From the IMG/VR virus record IMGVR_UViG_3300045988_044010: a stretch of 64,000 nt of DNA; one strand, 5' to 3'. Each line of letters opens with the position of its first letter. Within the stretch, counting starts at the first letter, position 1. Both the position numbers and the translations under genes were made by a program. This DNA is from a virus. Positions 12,158 to 63,004 of this stretch are shown piece by piece. The notes beneath the pieces were generated by a model, which made no database searches, was not told the DNA's origin, and saw only the letters and a list, made by a program, of their open reading frames with translations.

Positions 12158-12280
12158 ATCCCCAAAACAGAAAAAATATTTAAAGAAGCACTGTTAGAGA
12201 AGACCTTACCTCTTGGTAAAAAACGACATTTTAAAACACTGTATTAGTAGCGCAAGCGAAAATTCGGTATGGGATTTCAG

Positions 12281-13303
12281 ATGAAAAGATATAATAATTT
12301 ATTTGAACAGATTGTTAGCTTAGACAATCTACGTCTAGCTGAAAAGAAAGCTAGAAAAAACAAGACTCACAGACCAGAAGTTATTGAGTTCGATAAGAAT
12401 AAAGAACAGTTACTGTTAGAGTTATAGAAAATGTTAATTGATGGTACATATGTGACATCTCCGTATTATATCTATAAGATATATGAACCAAAAGAAAGAG
12501 AAATCTTTAGGTTGCCATATTATCCAGATAGAATAGTACACCACGCAATAATGAATATATTAGAACCTATATGGGTTTCAACCTTCGTGAAAGGTACATA
12601 TAGTTGCATTAAGAAACGTGGTATTCATAAAGCTATGAGAGATGTAAAAGAATCATTAAAGGACATACAAGGAACTCAGTATTGTCTAAAGTTAGATATC
12701 AGAAAGTTCTATCCTTCAATTGATAATGATATACTCAAACAAGTAATAAGAAGAAAGATAAAGGACGTTAAGTTATTAAATCTATTAGATAGTATAATAG
12801 ACTCTGCTGAAGGAGTACCTATTGGAAATTACTTATCACAATTCTTTGCAAACTTATATTTAACTTATCTAGATCACTATATTAAGGAAGTTCAGAAAGT
12901 TAAACACTATTTCAGATATGCAGATGATATTGTAATATTACATAGTGATAAGAAATATCTTAGATATCTATATGAAGATATTAAGGATTATTTAGAGAAT
13001 AAACTTAATTTACATTTCAAAGATAACTGGCAGATATTTAAAGTAGATTCTAGAGGAATAGATTTTGTAGGATACAGATTGTTTCATACACATATACTTC
13101 TTAGAAAGAGAATCAAACAAAACTTCTGCAGAAAGATAACAAAACTAAATAAAAAAGATATTGATAAGGATGATTATAAACAAAAAATATGTAGTTATAT
13201 AGGTTGGATTAAACATTGTAATGGAAGGAATTTGTTCAGTAAAATGTTGAAATATAAAGAGCTATTAGAATACGTTAACATCCATAGACCAAGTAAAACA
13301 TAA
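12281..13303 (+). CDS. DGR-type reverse transcriptase (1 in-frame TAG at 12425-12427)
   Basis: N-terminus MKRYNNLFEQIVSLDNLRLAEKKARKNK...; then YYPDRIVHHAIMN; PIGNYLSQFFANLYL (the DGR-type xGNxxSQ motif); and FRYADDIVIL (the YxDD catalytic box). Confidence 0.9.
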
Positions 13304-34400: not shown

Positions 34401-37400
34401 ATACCAATGAGACAAAGGAATGCCGATGGTTCATATTCAGCTAAGATAGATGCAGTTACCAAATTTCCTAGTTTTGTAGATTCTAATACTGCTTGGAATA
34501 ATGTACTAAAAGATTTAGCAGGGTGTAGAACTATTGCCAATATTATGGATAGAATAGTTCTACTGTCTCAAAATGATCAATTCTATGCATCGTTGTTGAT
34601 AAAGTTCGCAGATTTAGTTCAAAGATCTACTAATTCAGATCCTAATGTTGCTATAAACGCGGAAGCTATGTTAACTAAGTTAGAAACTGTGATTACTTCT
34701 GATATAAACAACTATGTTACTGCAAAAATATCATAGGATGAAGCCGGAATGACTACTATGAAATTAACAGACAATACTGTTGATATGAAAGCTATGCAAT
34801 ATCCTAAAGTGTGGTCTAGGAATATGTTTGAAAATTCTGGCATATTTAAATATAATGAGGATGGTATAGTAGTTGCACAGGATAACGCTAAGAGCAAAAT
34901 AAACACAGTTCTTAATGCCCTAAGTACGATCAAACAAGCATTTGTAAATAATAAGGGTATTATACGTACTAAGGATGGTAATTTTGATTTACATGAAATT
35001 CAGAATCAAGAGAGGCTTAAAGATTACATAGTTTCTATATTATAGGAAGTAGGAATTGGGATGGATAAACCTACTATAAATAAGATGTTGTTATCTGGTG
35101 ATTATGGTAATCCTAAGTCTGATCCATATACATTGCTAAACACATTTGTAGTAAATACTGTCAACTTTGGTGGATTAAGTAAAATATCTGATACATTAAA
35201 GATAATTCAAGATGCTATAAAACCTGATAATACTTTGTCTACTATAACAATAAGTGGTAAAGATACATTACCTACACAAATATGGAATGAAGTTGGCTAT
35301 GTTAAAGCATTGGCTAATTATTATGCTTTTGTACATGCTACAGACAAAGGATTAGGTAGTTTAGGTCCAGATGGTAATAGTTATTATATGGTTTCTCAGA
35401 ACAATTTTGCTAAAGACCGAGTAAACGAATTAATAACTGATCCAGAATTGTTCCACAATCTAGAAGCTGTAGTATATAATGAACATTCTATTATACTGAG
35501 TGCAGTAAGAAATGGTAATAAAAATATCCAAGTAGAGACTTTCATTAATTTTAAAGATGAAACTAGTTATGATGCTGGTAGAGATTACTTTAATATAACT
35601 CAAAGAGAAGACTACCTTGCAAAAATGACTGCTATCTTTAATGACAGAATAATATTCCCTACAGTAGCAGATAAGAAGACATATCATTTCATTAGAGGAA
35701 TTAAATTGCCTCACGAAAGAATTAGATTTACTAAAACAGGTAATGGTGTTAACATATTATACGGTGAACAATCGTTAGATACAATTATAGGTTATTGTCA
35801 AGATGAATTAAATCAGATTGAATTGTGTTTAAGACAAATTGACGATGATCCTACTCATTATGATAAAGATAAGAATATCCACTATAATGCTGATGGAACT
35901 ATAAACAACGACTGGTTGGATCCTTCTCGCAGAATTAAGAACTTTCATACTCCTAATGAATATAAGTATACAGATGATAAAGGTACAGAGCATACTGTAA
36001 TGTTAGAAGGTAACGGATCTAGATTCTTATTCTTAACCGGAGTATATGTTAATGGGAAGTTCATAGATTTTAACGATCCATCTAAATCTGCTATAGAAAA
36101 TTTATAGACTGCTAAAGATTATTTCTTTAATGCTCCTATTGATACTCAGAAACAATTGATAAGTGGACTGATCAATAGAAGAATGAAGGATGAATTAAAG
36201 ACAGCTAGAGATTTAGGGCTTATAGAAATTAATGAAAATCTAGATATCTGGAGTATTAGAAACAAACTATTAGATGATAATGTGCTTGCAGAAAGACAAC
36301 AAGCGTATGAATCATTGGATGCTAATAATGCAGAAGGCTATGCAATATTTGATATGCTTGCAGATTATACTATTAATAGTATTATATCTGTAAGTGAAAT
36401 AGAGAAAATATTCAATGGAGCACCTGCTTACTATAAAGTAAAATATGACAGAACCGGTATATTAGACTTATCTGTAGATAAGATTAAACGTCTTGGTTCA
36501 TTAACTTCTACTGGTACTAATAATAGGTTAGACTTCTTCAGTAATGATCCTATGAGAGAAGAATACGTAGTAGCTGAACTCAAAGATCATGAAATCCAAA
36601 GTAAACAATATTATACATATCGTAATCTATTTACTTTAGGTAATATAAAAGAAACCATTCAAGAAATGAATGGTGAAGAGGCTTGGAATGAAGTTAAGGA
36701 TCTATCTATACAAGAAATAGAGAAACAATATCCAGAAGAAGTAAAAATAGCCAAACAAGCTGCTGAAGTAGAAGTTAGAGGTTATAAAGAGGGAATAAAC
36801 GTAGCTGACGCTGCTGTTTACATAAGTCCTATAATGACCAGAGATCTTCTTAGAATGCGTGGACAGTGGAGCCCTGAAATAAAAGAAGCTTTCGATATAC
36901 TTATGAATGAAGATACTGCTGAACAGTGGGATTCTAATCCTGAGTTATATGCGAGAGCTAATAAGGTAATACTTAATGCTATGAAGTATATGGCATTTGG
37001 TACGAGATTTAATGAAATTCCCGGTTTAGGAATACCTTATTTTAATAAAATGGCTTTGTTCCCATTATTTAAATCTGTAGCTACTGGAGATATAAGAGCT
37101 TTGTATGATAGGATGATGGATGAAGATCCTAACAGGAGAATTGATATGGTTATGTTTGATTCTGCTGTTAAGGCTGGATCTAGAGCACCAATGAAAGCAT
37201 ACAGAGCTGCTAAAGACAGTGAAATAGAGTTAAAAGATGGACAGACTGTATTATCGGCTCATTTAACAGATCAATTACAAAGTGGAGAAGGTAATACTCT
37301 GAATGACTTTAATAACCTAGTTACATATACTTAGAAGTTTAAATACTTACGTCAACAGTTGGCTACAGATCCTCATATTCACGAGGAAACTATGGCTGGT

Positions 37401-40400: not shown

Positions 40401-41918
40401 TGGGATTATGTAGAAGCATTGAATAATAAAGATGCTTTAGCAGATATGGCTCTTCAACAAGAAAGACAAGATTGGATAGACGATGCTCCTTATATTCATC
40501 ATATAACAGAACTACCTAGTTATTAGAACATGAATTATGCGTTAGCTAGACAAGATAGAGTATATACTGAAACGGAAGATGATATGAATGTGGACGATGA
40601 GTTCTTTCCTGTATTAGAAGAAAGAGAAGAACCTACAATTTTGGCTGATTATAGTAATATAAAAAATTACTTGAAAACATATAGTGGTATAATAACTAAT
40701 CTAGAACCTAATCAAATATTTGTATTTGGTTCAAATACACAAGGTAGACATGGTAAAGGAGCTGCTTTAACAGCAAAAAATAAATTTGGAGCAGTGTATG
40801 GACAATCAGAAGGTATACAAGGATAGTCTTATGCTATAATAACTAAAGATTTGACAAGTAGTGTACAACCATCTAGAACTCCAGAATAGATAGTTGAATA
40901 GATAAACAAATTATACACTTATGCTAGGCAGCATAGAGACAAAGAATTTTTAGTAGCATATTCTGGCACAGGTACTAATCTAAACTACTATTCTAATGAA
41001 GACTTAGCACGTATGTTTGCTAAATACCCTATACCAGATAATATAGTGTTTGAAAAATCTTTTAGTGAACTTGTGTTTAAATACATAAATAAAGAAATAG
41101 ATAAAATGTTTAATAACACGAATGCTGCAAAATTTATTAATCACTCTGGAGGAGCTCTTGGATCAGATACTATGTGGGGTAAAATAGGTGAAGAATATGG
41201 AGTATATTCTAAACACTATTACGCAGAAGGTCAAAAGACGCCTAATGGAAATACCGCATTGGGTAAACAATTATTATCTGAATCAGATGTTCATCTGAAG
41301 GAAGCTAATAAAAAATTAGGTAGATTATTTCCTACTAGTAAAGACTATGTGAATAATTTACTTAGACGTAATTGGTTTCAAGTAAAGAATGCTGACGCAG
41401 TATTTGCTATAGGAACTATAGCTGATAATGGTACTGTAAATGGTGGTACTGGTTGGGCTGTTCAAATGGCAATAGATAATAATAAAGATGTATATGTATT
41501 TGATCAAAGTAGGTTAAAATGGTATAGGAATAGAGATCATAAATGGTCAGAGGTAACCACACCAAAACTCACTCCTAATTTTGCAGGTATAGGTACTAGA
41601 GAAATAACGCAAGAAGGAATTCAAGCCATTAGAAATGTTTATGCTCTTACTTTTAGAGGGTAGATTGAAAACTATATTAGTCTAGAAAATAAATCAGATC
41701 TATTCCCATCTAGTTTACCACTAACTGGAGTTGAATTAATGGCATTATATGAACAAGGAAATTCAAGAATAAGTGAAGTACTTGATCAAATGGAAGATCT
41801 TACACCAGAAGAAAGATAGACTTACTTAAATGAATTTGCACAGTTTATGACAGACAATGAAGTTAATACGCAAGATAAACTTGAAGAAGCATTGAGAAAA
41901 TTCATATGTAACTTATAA
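28422..41918 (+). CDS. Giant multidomain virion protein (4,498 codons) containing a crAss-type virion RNA polymerase module
   Basis: Eighteen ORF-track fragments from 28305 to 41663 all lie in frame 0. I translated every gap and found no in-frame TAA or TGA until 41916-41918. A HEAWH zincin-like motif sits at 33630-33644 and a DFDID (DxDxD) motif at 38142-38156. Confidence 0.8.
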
Positions 41919-49406: not shown

Positions 49407-49419
49407 AACTGTAATTTTT

Positions 49420-49812
49420 TTATGTTTTTAACTTGTTGACCAATTCATCAACTTGTTTTTGCGTATGTACTATATAATAATCTATATCTAGATTATTTAC
49501 ATACAAATAATACTTAAAAAGTTTTTCACGCAAAGCCCATGCATCATTTGGATAGCCTTTGCATTCAATAATAAACTTATCACCTACAAAATCAGGTTTA
49601 TAAGTTATTGCTCTATATTTCTTATCACCAAAAGTAAAAGCTGGAAGCAGTTCGTATCGTTGAGTTTCATACTCAGCTTTGATATTCGACTCTTCCAGCT
49701 TCTTATATGTATATGTCTCAAGTTTGCTTTTAAACTTAATACCATTATACTCATTTGGTGTTGCATTGCGAATTTTGCTTTCGCTAGGTTTATTTCTTTT
49801 CCTCTACATCAT
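49420..49812 (-). CDS. PD-(D/E)XK endonuclease, DUF1064/Holliday-junction-resolvase-like; TAG at codon 3
   Basis: Hand translation gives MM-Q-RKRNKPSESKIRNATPNEYNGIKFKSKLETYTYKKLEE...RAITYKPDFVGDKFIIECKGYPND...LFKYY, ending at TAA 49420-49422. The ORF track misses it because the only ATGs precede TAG 49804-49806. Confidence 0.65.
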
Positions 49813-49945: not shown

Positions 49946-50514
49946 TGTTTTATATAGTTTTTTATGAAATTAGCCAATTTATCAATAGATACAAAGTCAT
50001 AATTTGCAAAACTACTATCAATACCAACATCTATACGAATGTGGTCAGGTAATTCTGCTGAGTTTTGTAAATCTACCGATCCATGGCAATGACCGTGAAG
50101 CATTATACTACCTTTTTCAATATGTTCCCAAGAGAACATAGGAAAATGACACATAATTACTTCAATGTCTTTTGGTAATGACTGAAACACAGTTTTCTTA
50201 AATGTCATATTCTTTATCTGAGTAATATGATTGAAGAAACATCTGTGATTATCTGATACTTTATCATGATTTCCTAGTATAAGTACTTTATTTCCATTTA
50301 ATCTCTGAAATAGTTTTCGTTTTTCATCTGTTGTTCCAAATGCAAAATCTCCTAGAATATATACAGTATCATGTTTATCAATTCTACTGTTCCACTTTTG
50401 TATCATTTTCTCTGTTACCTCTTTCATATTATTACCAAATAGTTCTCTCCGTTTAGGATGAAAATCTAGTATTCTATTATGAAAGAAATGCCAATCTGCT
50501 GTGAACCATATCAT
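49942..50514 (-). CDS. Calcineurin-like metallophosphoesterase
   Basis: Motifs present are TADWHFFH, ILGDF, GNHD and HGHCHG. Confidence 0.8.
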   Translation of the reverse strand: MIWFTADWHFFHNRILDFHPKRRELFGNNMKEVTEKMIQKWNSRIDKHDTVYILGDFAFGTTDEKRKLFQRLNGNKVLILGNHDKVSDNHRCFFNHITQIKNMTFKKTVFQSLPKDIEVIMCHFPMFSWEHIEKGSIMLHGHCHGSVDLQNSAELPDHIRIDVGIDSSFANYDFVSIDKLANFIKNYIKQ

Positions 50515-51482
50515 TTGTTAATATTTTTAGTTAACCAATTTTTCACTTTATCAAATCCATTAGCTTTTATAGCATCAGATACATCTTTTGCTTTAAACTT
50601 TTTATGAATTAGCATACCTTCTAAGCCTGTTTTCTGGCTCATTTTACGGAGATATTTTACTCCGGCTTCATCTCTATCAAACAATATAATAATACGTTTA
50701 AAACGCTTCTTAAGTTGTTCTAGAACTCTATCAGGTATGAATGTAGATTCAGATGAAGGTGAGATAGCTGGTATACCCATCTCGTATAGGCACATAACAT
50801 CTTTCATACTTTTGGTTATAACAAGTATATCTCCTGTTTTAGGTAATTGTTTATAACCCTGAATGTCTAATTCAGTTAAGTTGTTACGCCATTTTGTATA
50901 TTTATCTGCATATGGTTTATATATCTTAAAATGATTATATACCTTATATGCGTACATAGGATTTTCTTCTTTGTAAACGCTTTTTACTATGCCGTTACAT
51001 AGGTAGTACTTTATACTACTTACTCCAAACTTCTTTAATGTTTCTACCTGTATATTAAACTGCTTCCAGTAATTGATGTCAGTATCGGTAAATTCCTGAC
51101 GTACTACACCAATTACTGTTTCAGTTGACGGTATATATTGCTTAGAGCTATCGAGATGCGTACTACTAGTAATTTTAAGTTTGTTAACTATATCATTTAG
51201 AATATCTGAATAATTAGTTAAACCTGTTATTAAGGATACGAATTTGATAACATTACCACATTCTCCTGTACCATGATCTTTAAACAACAATTGTTTAGTC
51301 TTTCTACTATAGAAACATCCAAACGATGGTGTTTTATCTTTTCTCAATGGAGAATTATAGATCATGCCAACTTTAAAATTGCCAATATACGCTGCATATA
51401 TATCATACTCACTTACTCTAGATAATATATAATCTAAAGTAATAGTAACTTCTTCTTTTATTTTGTTAGTATCAAAAACCAT
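50511..51482 (-). CDS. DnaG-like (Toprim) primase
   Basis: The sequence PLRKDKTPSFGCF...FKDHGTGECGNVIKFV resembles a DnaG zinc-binding region. IILFDRDEAG resembles the Toprim DxD motif. Confidence 0.7.
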   Translation of the reverse strand: MVFDTNKIKEEVTITLDYILSRVSEYDIYAAYIGNFKVGMIYNSPLRKDKTPSFGCFYSRKTKQLLFKDHGTGECGNVIKFVSLITGLTNYSDILNDIVNKLKITSSTHLDSSKQYIPSTETVIGVVRQEFTDTDINYWKQFNIQVETLKKFGVSSIKYYLCNGIVKSVYKEENPMYAYKVYNHFKIYKPYADKYTKWRNNLTELDIQGYKQLPKTGDILVITKSMKDVMCLYEMGIPAISPSSESTFIPDRVLEQLKKRFKRIIILFDRDEAGVKYLRKMSQKTGLEGMLIHKKFKAKDVSDAIKANGFDKVKNWLTKNINK

Positions 51483-51497
51483 ATGATATATTGTTAG

Positions 51498-51584
51498 TGG
51501 CAGTGTAGAGATTTGAACTCTACAGTAAAGGAAAGCTGTATCTTACTTTCTTTACACCATGCTCCTGACACTCCGGAACTGCCA
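51498..51584 (-). ncRNA. tRNA-like element 1 (87 nt), anticodon not assignable
   Basis: In the minus sense there is a T arm TAGAG-TTCAAAT-CTCTA, abutted by acceptor GGCAGT(T)/(C)ACTGCC with discriminator A. An exhaustive 5-bp/7-nt search finds no canonical anticodon arm. The centre is a 10-bp bulged hairpin. Confidence 0.5.
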
Positions 51585-51590
51585 TTAAAA

Positions 51591-51650
51591 CGTAGGTTGT
51601 GTACTATTTCGTAATCACTCATTTTTCATAGTGCGGTACACTAACCTACG
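51591..51650 (-). terminator. Long hairpin followed by a U-run, downstream of the SSB gene
   Basis: In the minus sense CGTAGGTT-A-GTGTAC pairs with GTACAC-AACCTACG (14 bp, one bulge, 31-nt structured loop), followed by TTTTAA. Its function as terminator or processing site is inferred. Confidence 0.4.
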
Positions 51651-51700
51651 TGTTCGTCGTATTATGCCCGACGTGGCGGCTTTATATAAATCCTAACAGA

Positions 51701-52327
51701 TTAGAAAGGTAGATCGTCAGACGGAGCTTCCGATTTGACTTCTAGAGGATTAACTTCTACAGTCTCTTTATCGGATACTACTGGTTTAACGAACAAGTCT
51801 ATACCTGTTATTTCTCGTATCATGCTTTCATTTTTGCCTTCTTCATAAAATCCCATCGGGATAATCATAGGCTCAATTGCTGCAAATTTTACATAACTTG
51901 GAAGTGTAGTATATCCATCTTTATTATAGACAACTTTCACTTTCAACAATGTGTCTTTGTTTGCTGCATTCAGCATAGCAACTACCCAGTTAGTGAATTC
52001 TTTATAAGAACTACCAGTGAAGTTTAATACTTCTTTAGGATAGAAACATCTCAAGATACGATTAATTCTTGTAACCTGATTTGTTGCTTTATTCTGGTTC
52101 TGTTCTTCAGTATCTTCTGCACGTTCCTTAGGTTCCCATTCTGTATGAACAAGTTCCTTGCCGTCTTTCTCGAATCTAAATTCAATGAAATTCTTTCCTG
52201 TTGGAGATACTGCAGTCTTCACTGACGTAAATTTAACATTATCATGAATACCTGCTTCGAGGTATTTAGTATTACTACTATTATTATTTAATGTTACTTG
52301 GTTTGCTAAATCTGTACTATAAATCAT
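51701..52327 (-). CDS. Single-stranded DNA-binding protein (candidate)
   Basis: The C-terminus ...EAPSDDLPF matches the acidic D-D-(I/L)-P-F tail typical of SSBs. It sits inside the replication module. Confidence 0.65.
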   Translation of the reverse strand: MIYSTDLANQVTLNNNSSNTKYLEAGIHDNVKFTSVKTAVSPTGKNFIEFRFEKDGKELVHTEWEPKERAEDTEEQNQNKATNQVTRINRILRCFYPKEVLNFTGSSYKEFTNWVVAMLNAANKDTLLKVKVVYNKDGYTTLPSYVKFAAIEPMIIPMGFYEEGKNESMIREITGIDLFVKPVVSDKETVEVNPLEVKSEAPSDDLPF

Positions 52328-57245: not shown

Positions 57246-57368
57246 AGTCCATGAGAAGATTCGAACTTCTAACTTAGGCATTTATTATCAGGCTCTACAG
57301 TCTGTTTATTATGATGCCAGAGGTCGTTGGAACCCCACTTTTTGTTTTGCCTATTAAACTACATGAAC
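57246..57368 (-). ncRNA. tRNA-like element 2 (123 nt) with about 50 extra nt in the core
   Basis: In the minus sense: acceptor GTTCATG/CATGGAC (7 bp, one G-U), D arm GTTT-AATAGGCA-AAAC, and T arm AGAAG-TTCGAAT-CTTCT. Between them lie hairpin GGGGT-TCCAACG-ACCTC and a 42-nt arm GGCAT...ATGCC. That arm contains an ATAATAAA direct repeat flanking 16 nt. Confidence 0.45.
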
Positions 57369-58784: not shown

Positions 58785-58991
58785 TTACTTGCTAAAACCT
58801 TTTATAACTTGTTTAGTTTCAGCGTTTGTATTCTCTGTATAATATATGACTAGATTCTTATCTTCATAAGTTATCTGTACTAATTCTCCAGAGGAGTAAG
58901 CACTTGCTATAGCTTTGTTTACTCGCTTTTCGTAGTGCTTACTAGTCTCTAGAAAATGTTTCCTTAGAAATACTGCATTCCTTTTTATCAT
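58785..58991 (-). CDS. Small hypothetical protein
   Basis: Intact ORF, start-stop coupled to its neighbours. Confidence 0.55.
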   Translation of the reverse strand: MIKRNAVFLRKHFLETSKHYEKRVNKAIASAYSSGELVQITYEDKNLVIYYTENTNAETKQVIKGFSK

Positions 58992-59497
58992 GCTACTAAC
59001 GCTAACGGAGCAGATTCAATATCTAACTCTGCTTTATCATTAAACTCTTCAAGATCCTTGTTGAGTTTGTTTATTTCTAATTGAATTTTGTTCTTAATAG
59101 TGTTAAGATAAGCTGAAGTCAGCTCTTCTGTAACCTTTAAGTTCTTTTTACCTTTTGCACGTTTGATTTTTGGATCAATTGTACGAATCTTATTAAGATG
59201 GAACAACTGTTCTGTCTTTTCACTTAGAGCAAAGATAGTATAATAATTATTATCTACTGGAAGCTCTGAGAACTTCTTATATCCCATATTGATACACTGC
59301 AAGTACAGTTTCATCAACAGACGTTCCTCTGACATCTCAGAGATCTTTGTAAGCATTACTTTCAGATCAAAATTACGCTTAGCCTCTGTTGAGATTACAT
59401 TCTCATTTTTAATAATATTCCAGTATTTAGTAATTTCCTTACTTAACTCGTCACGACGAGTTTTTGCATATTTAGATGTAATTGATTTCATATTCAA
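58988..59497 (-). CDS. Hypothetical protein ending in ...LALVA
   Basis: Intact ORF with a TGA stop. Confidence 0.7.
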   Translation of the reverse strand: MNMKSITSKYAKTRRDELSKEITKYWNIIKNENVISTEAKRNFDLKVMLTKISEMSEERLLMKLYLQCINMGYKKFSELPVDNNYYTIFALSEKTEQLFHLNKIRTIDPKIKRAKGKKNLKVTEELTSAYLNTIKNKIQLEINKLNKDLEEFNDKAELDIESAPLALVA

Positions 59498-59546: not shown

Positions 59547-59610
59547 TGGTATGTAGCGGAATCAAACCGCTGTCTCCTTAAAGGCAACTCTATCACTAAG
59601 CTAACATACC
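59547..59610 (-). ncRNA. tRNA-like element 3 (64 nt, truncated core)
   Basis: In the minus sense: perfect 7-bp acceptor GGTATGT/ACATACC with discriminator A, and T arm AGCGG-TTTGATT-CCGCT. Only 32 nt remain for the D arm, anticodon arm and variable region. The best anticodon-like arm is GTTGC-CTTTAAG-GAGAC, with one mismatch and one G-U. Confidence 0.45.
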
Positions 59611-59702
59611 GAATATAGAAACTGCCCATCCAGCAGCCTCTATTATAATAGTACCCGTCCAGTACTATAAAGAATAGAAGAGTTGTATCCAATCCAACAC
59701 AA

Positions 59703-60925: not shown

Positions 60926-61113
60926 AAAAATGTTTCCTTTCTGAGTCCGTACTTGATATACCAATACGAACCATTTTTATACTCTTGGTTAATAATTAAT
61001 TTTAAGCTCTCCACCTTTCGATTATTTAATAGCACTACAGTAATGGTAGTGGTGAATTCAATCACATAATCTACTCAGCATAAAAATAATAAATGTTAAT
61101 TTATTTGAAAATA

Positions 61114-61150
61114 TCTGATAATGATAAGATCTCTGATAATTTTCTGATAA
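61114..61150 (-). promoter_or_regulatory. TTATCAGA-type repeat cluster next to an AT-rich tract (early promoter/operator or origin candidate)
   Basis: On the plus strand TCTGATAA starts at 61114, 61132 and 61143, and TGATAAG lies at 61122-61128. An AT-rich run at 61081-61113 is adjacent. Confidence 0.45.
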
Positions 61151-61160
61151 ATATCGTTTT

Positions 61161-63004
61161 AACGTCCCGTTTCGACGGTTAAGATTCAACTCCTTCGATG
61201 CTTAACGCACCTCTCACCGTTATTTCATATCGCTATTAGATGCAATATGAAAGACTTTATCATCAGTTCACGATGAACCTACTTAGTATTTCCGGATTTA
61301 TCGAAATTCGTTTGAATTACGGTCGTTTATCTAACGTTACCAACTCACAAGCTCATTACCTATAGTATGACCCACTTGTACCTCTCGGATTTCTTATTTA
61401 TACTGCACGAACACGAGGATTTCCACCTCTCATCGTCTCCTTGCTTGCTTAGCTGCTATTGCTACTAAGTGTACTCTCCCTTAAATCTACCGAGACAGGG
61501 TGATAGGAGGCAGGTCATTGACGAATCAGCGTTCTCTTTACATATATACTTGCGGTATATACTTTATGAGTTTCTAATGTCAGCGATGACGGTTGGCAGT
61601 CTGGGGTGACTCGTACTCCATGCGGTCTATCTTACAACTGATAATTTGCTACTTCTGTACTATCATTGAACTTCCCAATTTCATATATCAGGTTATCAGC
61701 CTAATACGAGATTAAACAATTTGAAAACACATTTTACCATTAGCTGGTTTTCTTCAGCTTTTACTGTTTTCAGATTAAGAATATATCTGTCATCACATCT
61801 ATATTCACTACCTTCTGGTTGTAGGATTCCAACCCTACAGCAGCTGTATTCTTACTTTAGTAAACTTAGTTTAAAGTACTTCTACTATATAGTTATTACT
61901 TCTCTTCAACTCAGGAGTGAGGCGATGCTTGTAATTAACCAGTCTTTACATATCTTGAAAAACATAAGCTCTGCTGTTTTTTAGTAGGAGTTCCTAGCGT
62001 CTCCTTAAAATCATTTTATATCATAATCATACTTGCTAAAGGTATGTGATAACTAGAATCAGGGTTATCGCGCCCTCAAACCGCTTAGACACTCTGGGTC
62101 TATTCATTCCTCATTCAATTATACTCACACGAACGAATAAGCACGTGAGTCACCTTAGACTTGAAAGACGGTATCAATCTCATATACCTCATCCCTTATA
62201 CGTAAGTTCTTTTGCGGCACGCTAGTTACGGTAGCGCACAGGATTGGCTCCTGCTCCCTGGTAATCAGTCTATTTTCACCACAGTTTAGCATGGTTACTT
62301 AGGATCATTGCATGTCCAGCCTTCATATCCTTACTTTGTATAAGTATGTACCATAACACGGTTATCCTTACATTAGTATCAGTTATTTACTCCCTTTATA
62401 TTACGAACCAATTATCGTAAAAACACTAGAGTTAGCCTATTTTTCCAATCAGGACGCATAGTTGCGCTTTTGTATGAAGCGAGGTTGGAACCCGCTTGTT
62501 GCGTTAGTCAGCCTTAATATTGTCCAACAATCCTTTTCCAAGGGATTGTTCAAGAACACTTTGTTCTTGTCTCAGCATCGTGTTTATATTCCTTTTTGAG
62601 TCACATCTTGATAGTGCATACGAATATAGGGATTTCGTTCCCTTTGAGCTGTTTGTAATTCAGTGTGTCTTCTCTTAAATTACGAGTCTTTAATTAATCA
62701 AATCACCAATCGGTTCTCATTATCATAATCTTATTTGAAGGTTGCTCACTCTCACCTCCTCTTACACAGGTTTCACGTGTGTAAGCTAACATCTTACCTT
62801 TTGTTATCTCAACTGTTTTAGCAGTATACATATTCTCAGATCATGTACTTTTCGGACCATGTGTAAATGAACACAAGCTTCCTGACACAGTGCGCATTGT
62901 CTTATTTTAGACACCGCTTGCCTTCTGTCGGAGTGATTTACGCTATAGTTTTACTCCTCTCGAACTATGACATAATTATAGTATTTATAAAGCGGCTATT
63001 GTCA
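61161..63004. other. ORF-free, GC-enriched region (candidate large structured RNA or cis-acting region)
   Basis: The track shows no minus-strand ORF of 60 or more codons, and only one low-complexity TTG-initiated plus ORF. TTA, TCA, TAA and TGA are frequent in all frames I sampled, so TAG recoding does not rescue coding. Several perfect local hairpins are present. Confidence 0.5.

Follow-up and report, generated by a model that had tools for sequence, protein, structure and literature searches.

In several known systems a transfer RNA (tRNA), or a fold resembling one, marks the end of another RNA. Mitochondrial tRNAs punctuate polycistronic transcripts and tRNAs also lie within the E. coli tufB operon, their excision separating the neighbouring messenger RNAs (mRNAs). 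In the eukaryotic MALAT1 (mascRNA) and MEN-beta RNAs, RNase P cuts at a tRNA-like fold and makes the 3' end of the upstream RNA, which is protected by a terminal structure, and the small tRNA-like RNA of the mascRNA type is released and receives CCA. The TMERs of MHV68 and engineered tRNA scaffolds employ an uncharged tRNA-like module, joined to other RNA, for processing and stability. Plant mitochondria encode t-elements, reportedly described by Hanic-Joyce in 1990. These acceptor and T-arm mimics, which have no anticodon arm, are RNase P and RNase Z substrates that define the ends of mitochondrial mRNAs there (PMC1920247, PMC5499578). The phi80 M3 RNA, the P4 CI RNA and the C4 RNA of P1 and P7 are non-tRNA phage RNAs matured by the host RNase P (PMC5499578). 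Here we consider tRNA-like element 1 and two companion elements in the 64,000-nucleotide (nt) IMG/VR virus record IMGVR_UViG_3300045988_044010 (hereafter the window, meaning the whole stretch analysed). Judging by its region matches, the window phage is a crAss-like phage of the family Suoliviridae, subfamily Loutivirinae, and its nearest deposited genomes are cr109_1 and cr53_1. Among the viruses of the human gut, crAss-like phages rank first in abundance.

The three elements fill the three 208-218-nt intergenic gaps, the largest ones, of the replication module of the window (~46-60 kb, all genes on the minus strand), all in the orientation of the genes. Element 1 resembles a plant mitochondrial t-element in being a degenerate tRNA that mimics the acceptor and T arm and keeps the T loop; it has neither an anticodon arm nor a canonical D arm, one or the other of which t-elements lack as well. 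The elements stand in a co-oriented gene array, adjoining gene ends and 15-56 nt upstream of ATGs, while t-elements adjoin mRNA ends within co-transcribed regions and act there as RNase P/Z signals (PMC1920247, PMC5499578). Unlike the organellar t-elements, they occur in a bacteriophage, at three syntenic slots, turn over rapidly as cassettes and appear to descend directly from recognisable tRNA-Leu and tRNA-Arg genes, and their cleavage is predicted. As in mascRNA, the tRNA-like fold follows an RNA end shielded by structure, the cut being a proposal in the phage, but mascRNA belongs to a eukaryotic nuclear long non-coding RNA (lncRNA), with a triple helix instead of a hairpin and no downstream coding mRNA. 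The punctuating tRNAs of mitochondria and of tufB are functional decoding tRNAs, whereas the phage elements have lost the decoding part. The M3, CI and C4 RNAs are hairpin-like and have no T-loop equivalent, whereas the present elements keep the full T loop and elbow. The TMERs and the engineered scaffolds likewise join a tRNA-like module to another RNA part, but the former are eukaryotic-viral, transcribed by Pol III and carry their cargo 3' of the tRNA-like part, and the latter are artificial. In the searchable literature, nothing was found on tRNA-like elements in crAss-like phages. Elements of this kind are known from organelles and from eukaryotic lncRNAs; that they occur in an abundant gut phage family, in several copies and with turnover, appears to be new.

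We give about an even chance to the reading that the elements are former tRNA genes which have lost decoding, have retained the region to which RNase P, RNase Z and the CCA-adding enzyme respond, and would now serve as sites at which the mRNA is cut. A trio of features is conserved, namely a stack of 12 base pairs (bp) formed by the acceptor and T stems, the T loop and a GG for the elbow, and the anticodon region is lost or variable. The acceptor/T stack, T loop and elbow together form the minimal substrate of the three enzymes (PMC5499578). A role as an RNase P/Z processing signal, one of those suggested in an earlier sequence-only reading of element 1, agrees best with the comparative evidence because the enzyme-recognised part alone is conserved, the distances to the ATGs are fixed, the elements share the orientation of the genes and real tRNAs occupy the same slots in relatives. 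The parts of element 1 and its surroundings are as follows, in the order of the transcript.

51587..51651, minus strand: 15-bp hairpin with one bulge, then UUUU (hairpin proper 51651-51590), 6 nt upstream of element 1.
51498..51583, minus strand: tRNA-like element 1, 86 nt, from G+1 (G51583) to the discriminator A73 (A51498).
51578..51583, minus strand: 5' strand of the acceptor stem, GGCAGT, pairing with 51499-51504 and covarying across types.
51563..51577, minus strand: hairpin in the D position, with pairs T7-A21, C8-G20, C9-G19, G11-C17 and A12-T16.
51557..51560, minus strand: AUGG, within a single-stranded stretch, invariant in 13 type-A sequences.
51525..51555, minus strand: long bulged arm, GTAAAGAAAG / CTTT-C-CTTTAC, with the 10-nt loop UAAGAUACAG, found in the minimum-free-energy fold and supported by stem covariation.
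51505..51523, minus strand: T arm, with the 6-bp stem GTAGAG/CTCTAC and the loop TTCAAAT.
51499..51504, minus strand: 3' strand of the acceptor stem, ACTGCC, partner of GGCAGT.
51483..51497, minus strand: C74 and the A/U-rich 15-nt leader CUAACAAUAUAUCAU, running to the primase ATG.

The sequence-only reading had described an 87-nt element with the T arm TAGAG-TTCAAAT-CTCTA on an acceptor stem of 6-7 bp. The T arm and a 6-bp acceptor stem are present, and the extent agrees if U-1 at 51584 is counted, the element itself being 86 nt. The T arm carries the tRNA signature residues (G53, T54, Psi55, C56, R57, A58 and C61) on a 12-bp acceptor stack. The acceptor stem has six Watson-Crick pairs and a T7.C79 mismatch at position 7, and G61-C79 (A-U in relatives) forms a sixth T-stem pair; because of this mismatch and this extension of the T stem, the stack is of 6+6 = 12 bp. 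The absence of an anticodon arm, also claimed earlier, was borne out, as none of the registers in the core forms a 5-bp stem with a 7-nt loop and the best reaches 4/5 pairs. Neither is there a canonical D arm, since the hairpin begins at position 7 and leaves no 8-9 linker; the GG sits outside this 5' hairpin, in the AUGG stretch, a candidate equivalent of G18/G19 that may serve the elbow, and a GG is found at this position in every type inspected by eye. The bulged long arm with its 10-nt loop and the 5' hairpin, as drawn in the sequence-only reading, both appear in the minimum-free-energy fold (z = -2.65) and covary in relatives. The long arm adjoins the T arm, like the variable arm of a type II tRNA, and the primase ATG lies 15 nt downstream of the element. 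ARAGORN finds no tRNA in the whole window and Rfam at gathering score finds nothing in it, so the check for a tRNA or tmRNA call at element 1 came back negative. The Rfam tRNA model RF00005 (gathering score 29 bits) fails to match element 1 even when a search of just 121 nt is run at E<=10.

When both strands were scanned strictly, demanding a 5-bp T stem, G53-C61, T54, T55, R57, A58 and an acceptor with 6 or more Watson-Crick pairs, the scan returned four sites in the window against 0.48 expected (first-order Markov, dinucleotide-frequency simulations; maximum 2 in 60). One of the four lies inside coding sequence and is probably due to chance; element 1 is the most diverged of the other three.

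57246..57368, minus strand: tRNA-like element 2, 123 nt long and 20 nt ahead of the ATG of PolB; RF00005 score 39.2 bits.
59547..59610, minus strand: tRNA-like element 3, 64 nt, upstream of an open reading frame (ORF) of 167 amino acids (aa); RF00005 score 40.9 bits.

Elements 2 and 3 thus exceed the gathering score of RF00005, with the anticodon arm skipped, and the whole-window Rfam scan at gathering score missed element 2. Element 2 has the acceptor stem GTTCATG/CATGGAC, the D arm GTTT-AATAGGC-AAAC and the T arm AGAAG-TTCGAAT-CTTCT, and its anticodon arm is replaced by an insert of 65 nt. In element 3, which lies ~56 nt from the ATG of the 167-aa ORF, the 17-nt anticodon arm is replaced by 10 nt, and the T loop TTTGATT and D loop AGTGATA give A19:U56 in place of G19:C56.

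At the primase slot, an acceptor stem and T arm are present in all 80 of the IMG/VR loci sampled (primase >=84% identical), after a hairpin and a U run and ending 14-20 nt before the primase ATG; over the relatives compared, the distance from 3' end to ATG is 14-24 nt at this slot and 19-21 nt at the PolB slot. Conservation and covariation in related phages, the test proposed for element 1 by the sequence-only reading, are thus observed. The middles range from none (42-48 nt in total, comprising acceptor, D-loop remnant and T arm) to inserts of 64-71 nt, and the following types occur.

Window type and two sister types: 86-89 nt, with a 5' hairpin and a long arm.
Type B: 66-68 nt, with a 7-bp arm.
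cr109_1 type: 71-72 nt, with a short arm.
D series: 47-48, 77, 90 or 124 nt, with a true D arm and a middle ranging from none to large.
cr53_1 type: 42 nt, with acceptor, AATGGTTAAT and T arm only.
Type F: 136 nt, with a canonical acceptor, a D arm and an anticodon-type stem around a 66-71-nt insert.

Two loci pass RF00005 with the insert skipped (L063 at 49 bits, L037 at 42 bits), and ARAGORN makes no convincing call among the primase-slot types, with low-quality calls at L056/L058 and L035. Elements of the same kind occur in the wider family, in cr114_1, cr115_1, cr50_1, cr10_1 and cr273_1. A genuine 87-nt tRNA-Leu(UAA) stands 24 nt upstream of the primase ATG in cr131_1. Element 1 is probably a derivative of such a type II tRNA-Leu gene that has lost its anticodon arm, because it shares the length and the discriminator A, and because the long arm directly adjoins the T arm, which is where the variable arm of a type II tRNA lies. 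The real tRNAs and the derivatives have a common 3' context, N73-C74, with no encoded CCA.

A 42-nt minimal element is also seen in cr131_1 (L090:530-575), directly after the SSB-like gene, reading TATCGG AATGGTTTTA GAGAGG-TTCGATT-CCTCTC CCGATA A C; ~200 nt of apparently structured RNA separate it from the real tRNA-Leu.

At the PolB slot, at least 65 of 70 loci carry a 7-bp acceptor stem and a T arm ending 19-21 nt before the ATG, with middles from none (58 nt in total) to ~70 nt, and the picture is alike in the cr109_1 and cr131_1 genomes. At the third slot, ARAGORN calls a 74-nt tRNA-Arg(UCU) in 42/80 relatives; the other 38, the window lineage included, have forms of 64-67 nt in which the anticodon stem-loop has become a covarying mini hairpin. 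Both kinds lie equally far from the ATG. After loss of the arm the acceptor stem changed from GGTATGT/ACATACC to CATGCAT/ATGCATG, fully compensated, and the T stems also changed, always with compensation. The tertiary pair 19:56 covaries between G:C and A:U, a GG in the D loop accompanying TTCGA in the T loop and a GA accompanying TTTGA.

One group of PolB-slot loci (L093, L094, L100, L118-L120 and L125, at ~760-860) carries an insert of ~52 nt with three copies of ATTCGYAT, inside an intact anticodon-type stem TCCTG/CAGGG. The repeats might be a protein-binding array.

Pairing statistics were taken over the upper halves of elements at the primase and PolB slots, of which 48 are distinct. Of the stem cells, 95.8% are paired, compared with 50.4% when columns are shuffled and 46% when partners are shifted by one position. 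The 95.8% is biased upward because the 5' acceptor strand was located partly by pairing; the position of that strand is also fixed by homology, by the neighbouring U8-A9 and D arm or by the hairpin upstream, and a good many stems show 7/7 Watson-Crick pairs. Changes on both sides occur in 11/12 stem pairs. G53, T54, C56, A58 and C61 are invariant in the 48 distinct elements, and the base after the discriminator (C74) is almost always C. Covariation extends to the 5' hairpin, the long arm and the sixth pair of the T stem among sequences of the window type and its two sister types; pairs 7-21, 8-20 and 9-19 change on both sides in relatives, and the loop of the type-A long arm keeps GAUAYA. The density of variable sites per 20-nt bin within lineages is low in the T-arm bin (0-3 sites), which is weak support because indels blur the profile.

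The hairpin upstream of element 1 was earlier read as 14 bp followed by UUUU; the U run is there, and the stem has 15 bp with one bulge. Over 51651-51590 it folds with z = -4.36, and none of 200 shuffles folded equally well. It is kept in relatives, and L014, L024 and L030 have a compact hairpin of 11 bp with a 5-nt loop followed by UUUUAU. Its 15-bp stem is stable, but it is followed by 4 U, where an intrinsic terminator would have at least 5, and has a 32-nt apical part, where a terminator would have a small loop; a simple terminator scan leaves it unflagged because of the mere 4 U and the large apical region. Two strong hairpins lie directly upstream of element 3 (59611-59668; z = -4.18).

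51701..52327, minus strand: 208-aa ORF, upstream of element 1, with an SSB-like C-terminal DDLPF.
50511..51482, minus strand: DNA primase gene, downstream of element 1 (phrog_12622, E = 6.8e-38).
58988-59491, minus strand: 167-aa ORF, downstream of element 3.

The primase gene named by the sequence-only reading is thereby confirmed. Its label of single-stranded DNA-binding protein (SSB) for the upstream gene was not upheld, since comparison of the 208-aa ORF with Pfam, PHROG and PDB sequences gave no significant match, and it shares with SSB only the C-terminal DDLPF.

The structure and position of the elements, their conservation and covariation, and their origin from real tRNAs are shown by the data; under the processing reading, we infer transcription, cleavage and effects on mRNA stability and translation as follows. 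On the simplest account, tRNA genes inside the replication transcript would always have been excised by host enzymes, cutting the mRNA there; when decoding became dispensable, the cutting signal would have been kept, and clean removal of the anticodon arm would have avoided miscoding. Element 1 would be transcribed within the leftward transcript of the replication genes and would fold to a tRNA-like L shape. RNase P would then cut at G51583, leaving an upstream mRNA that ends in the 15-bp hairpin and UUUAAU, an end that would shield it from 3' exonucleases; the hairpin may also be a partial terminator, with less read-through into the primase gene. A cut by RNase Z after A51498 would free a primase mRNA with a short A/U-rich leader, which would suit Shine-Dalgarno-independent initiation in Bacteroidota. 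Elements 2 and 3 would play the equivalent role upstream of PolB and the 167-aa ORF. If the elements are true RNase P/Z sites, they would be, as far as found, the first t-element-type mRNA punctuation in a bacteriophage, would show that decoding tRNAs have repeatedly evolved into pure processing signals, and would give precise predicted transcript ends upstream of the primase and polymerase genes. Annotation programs miss the elements or may call some of them pseudo or odd tRNAs (e.g. 'tRNA-Ser(aga)' or 'tRNA-???' in ARAGORN), and such miscalls can mislead inferences on codon use and recoding in these phages.

Several observations weigh against the processing reading, among them the upward bias of the paired percentage. 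The covariation of the 5' hairpin and long arm of type A, and the kept GAUAYA, would be needless for a bare processing signal. The element is missing from the primase slot of cr118_1 and crAss001 and from some distant PolB loci, and the hairpin upstream of element 2 is weak. Genomes that are nearly identical furthermore differ in their cassettes, an unrelated one standing at the primase slot in L010 and at the PolB slot in L093, the swaps lying amid flanks 94-100% identical (L010:1400-1500 against 51483-51600; L093:740-880 against 57246-57368). In L093 the N-terminal 300 aa of PolB are 100% identical to those of the window and the cassette is unrelated. Replacement is precise and bounded by the conserved hairpin and leader. 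That near-identical genomes differ in this way is a hint of either diversifying selection or frequent recombination; the swaps can be accounted for by recombination between the conserved flanks. Group I introns are known to target PolB and primase in this phage group (PMC7886860), and homing endonucleases and group I introns could promote recombination of the cassettes.

The cassette-like replacement in otherwise 94-100% identical genomes is also what speaks for the strongest rival, to which we grant a minor share of belief, namely that the elements are released as stable small RNAs acting in trans, with the upper half of the tRNA as a scaffold for processing and stability. The varied middles, some of them structured or repeated (the GAUAYA arm of type A; the three ATTCGYAT of the L093 type), agree with it, and the conservation of the upper half is equally compatible. 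Such RNAs might be sponges or decoys that occupy host factors reading the acceptor end or elbow, such as the nucleotidyltransferase or acetyltransferase toxins of abortive-infection systems; alternatively, they might carry a variable cargo arm. The sequence-only reading had likewise suggested a decoy for tRNA-targeting host defences; anticodon nucleases are excluded as targets because no conserved anticodon loop is present, and the decoy for acceptor or elbow factors survives as part of this rival. Against a trans-acting RNA stand the minimal forms without any cargo, the lack of a cargo motif common to different types and the strict placement before start codons, for which it would have no need. 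It is likewise a rather unlikely, tentative proposition that the Suoliviridae carry an undescribed class of non-decoding, tRNA-scaffolded small RNAs, former tRNA genes turned into stable L-shaped RNAs with nothing or an exchangeable arm at the anticodon position, swapped as cassettes between near-identical genomes and acting in trans, for instance on host factors or defence systems reading the acceptor end or elbow, beside any mRNA-cutting role.

That the elements are neutral relics, functionless tRNA pseudogenes decaying in place, is improbable. The real tRNAs at the same slots in relatives, the mismatched variants (A3.C70 in L031/L047, G.A in L093) and the genomes from which an element is missing would suit such decay, which is nevertheless made unlikely by the covariation and by the persistence of the elements after loss of the arm. 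Loss is confined to the anticodon region, the 12 stem pairs keep their pairing through many double changes, and the arm-deleted forms at the third slot outlasted a complete, compensated turnover of the acceptor stem. The primase-slot element is retained throughout the 80 close relatives, and compact phage genomes would be expected to delete useless DNA.

Little credence is likewise given to a cis-acting operator in the 5' untranslated region, in which the uncut fold would bind a phage or host protein or pair with the leader and so control translation of primase and polymerase, as in the autoregulation reported for the T4 gene 43 and gene 32 mRNAs. The constant short distance to the ATG and the fact that the genes concerned encode replication proteins are in keeping with it, as is the complementarity in type A between the GAUAYA loop (51536-51545, minus strand) and UAUAUC in the leader (51486-51491, minus strand), which amounts to 6 bp in A'' relatives and 4-5 bp in the window. 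This pairing is missing from the non-A types, and is no general mechanism because it is confined to type A lineages. Element 3, moreover, lies well away from its ATG, and the invariant T-loop nucleotides, together with the covariation of 19:56, indicate a true tRNA elbow, the hallmark of recognition by tRNA enzymes rather than of an operator specific to one gene.

A functional unconventional tRNA, or one containing an intron and decoding after splicing, is highly improbable, the armless forms being the reason: L063 and L037 keep an anticodon-type stem around a large insert, as does the L093 type, and ARAGORN makes its few low-quality calls, but element 1 has neither a 5-bp/7-nt register nor a match to the tRNA model, the forms of 42-48 and 58-64 nt leave no place for an anticodon (which likewise disfavours the unusual tRNA of the sequence-only reading), no insert comes near the length of a group I intron, and the Arg-derived form is without the anticodon that arginyl-tRNA synthetase (ArgRS) needs under the established identity rules.

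Several further identities for element 1 were rejected. For a tmRNA the third pair is C3-G70 and not G3:U70, and neither ARAGORN nor Rfam makes a tmRNA call. Y RNA (YrlA), riboswitches and other curated tRNA-like or RNA families give no Rfam match to the element, permissive scans included. An attP site or copy of the 3' half of a host tRNA is countered by the presence of both acceptor strands and by a scan of 185,579 species genomes in which only a mis-binned crAss-like contig matched. This contig (CANRPT010000002.1, 98.9 kb) is binned in a metagenome-assembled genome of an 'uncultured Bacilli bacterium'; it bears the hairpin, a type A'' element and the start of primase, and is evidently a crAss-like phage genome. 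A replication origin or single-stranded DNA cloverleaf is not indicated, as the only flip in GC skew, at ~46 kb, coincides with the change of gene orientation, and the skew shows no inflection at 51.5, 57.3 or 59.6 kb. An ORF of 42 aa over element 1 (51494-51622) was rejected as coding because the 1-3-nt indels and whole-cassette replacements of relatives keep no frame. A sigma-70 promoter scan was uninformative because the number of sites equalled the shuffle expectation.

Genuine tRNAs and other structured RNAs were also seen in the relatives. The sole genuine tRNA of cr109_1 (L083:11608-11687) has the anticodon CUA (amber suppressor) and lies upstream of a homing endonuclease and terminase; it is annotated as tRNA-Gln, ARAGORN says Pyl, and unlike the tRNA-like elements it encodes CCA. 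In the early region of cr131_1 self-cleaving RNAs and tRNAs are clustered (L167, four sites: 40862-40931, 41530-41636, 40589-40668 and 35572-35935), with two RAGATH-1 hammerhead ribozymes whose scores of 70.9 and 59.8 bits exceed the gathering score, a sub-threshold RAGATH-12 match adjoining tRNA-Gln and tRNA-Met, and an annotated tmRNA with a weak match to the permuted tmRNA model.

Three other stretches of the window were noted. Between two replication-module genes lie 198 nt without a called ATG ORF (49407-49604, minus strand), in which the T-arm/acceptor scan found no tRNA-like element. On the plus strand, 12202-12284 gives a sub-threshold Rfam match to the RT-17 RNA (35.4 bits, gathering 40.4; E = 0.005). 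A stretch of ~2 kb (60926-63004, minus strand), to which Rfam gives no match, is almost free of ORFs, with G+C raised to 0.37-0.38. It holds several T-loop-like hairpins, e.g. GTAGG-GTTGGAAT-CCTAC and GAGG-TGGAAAT-CCTC, as well as a CCGTCGAAACGGGACG hairpin common to the window and cr109_1, and may be a large structured non-coding RNA.

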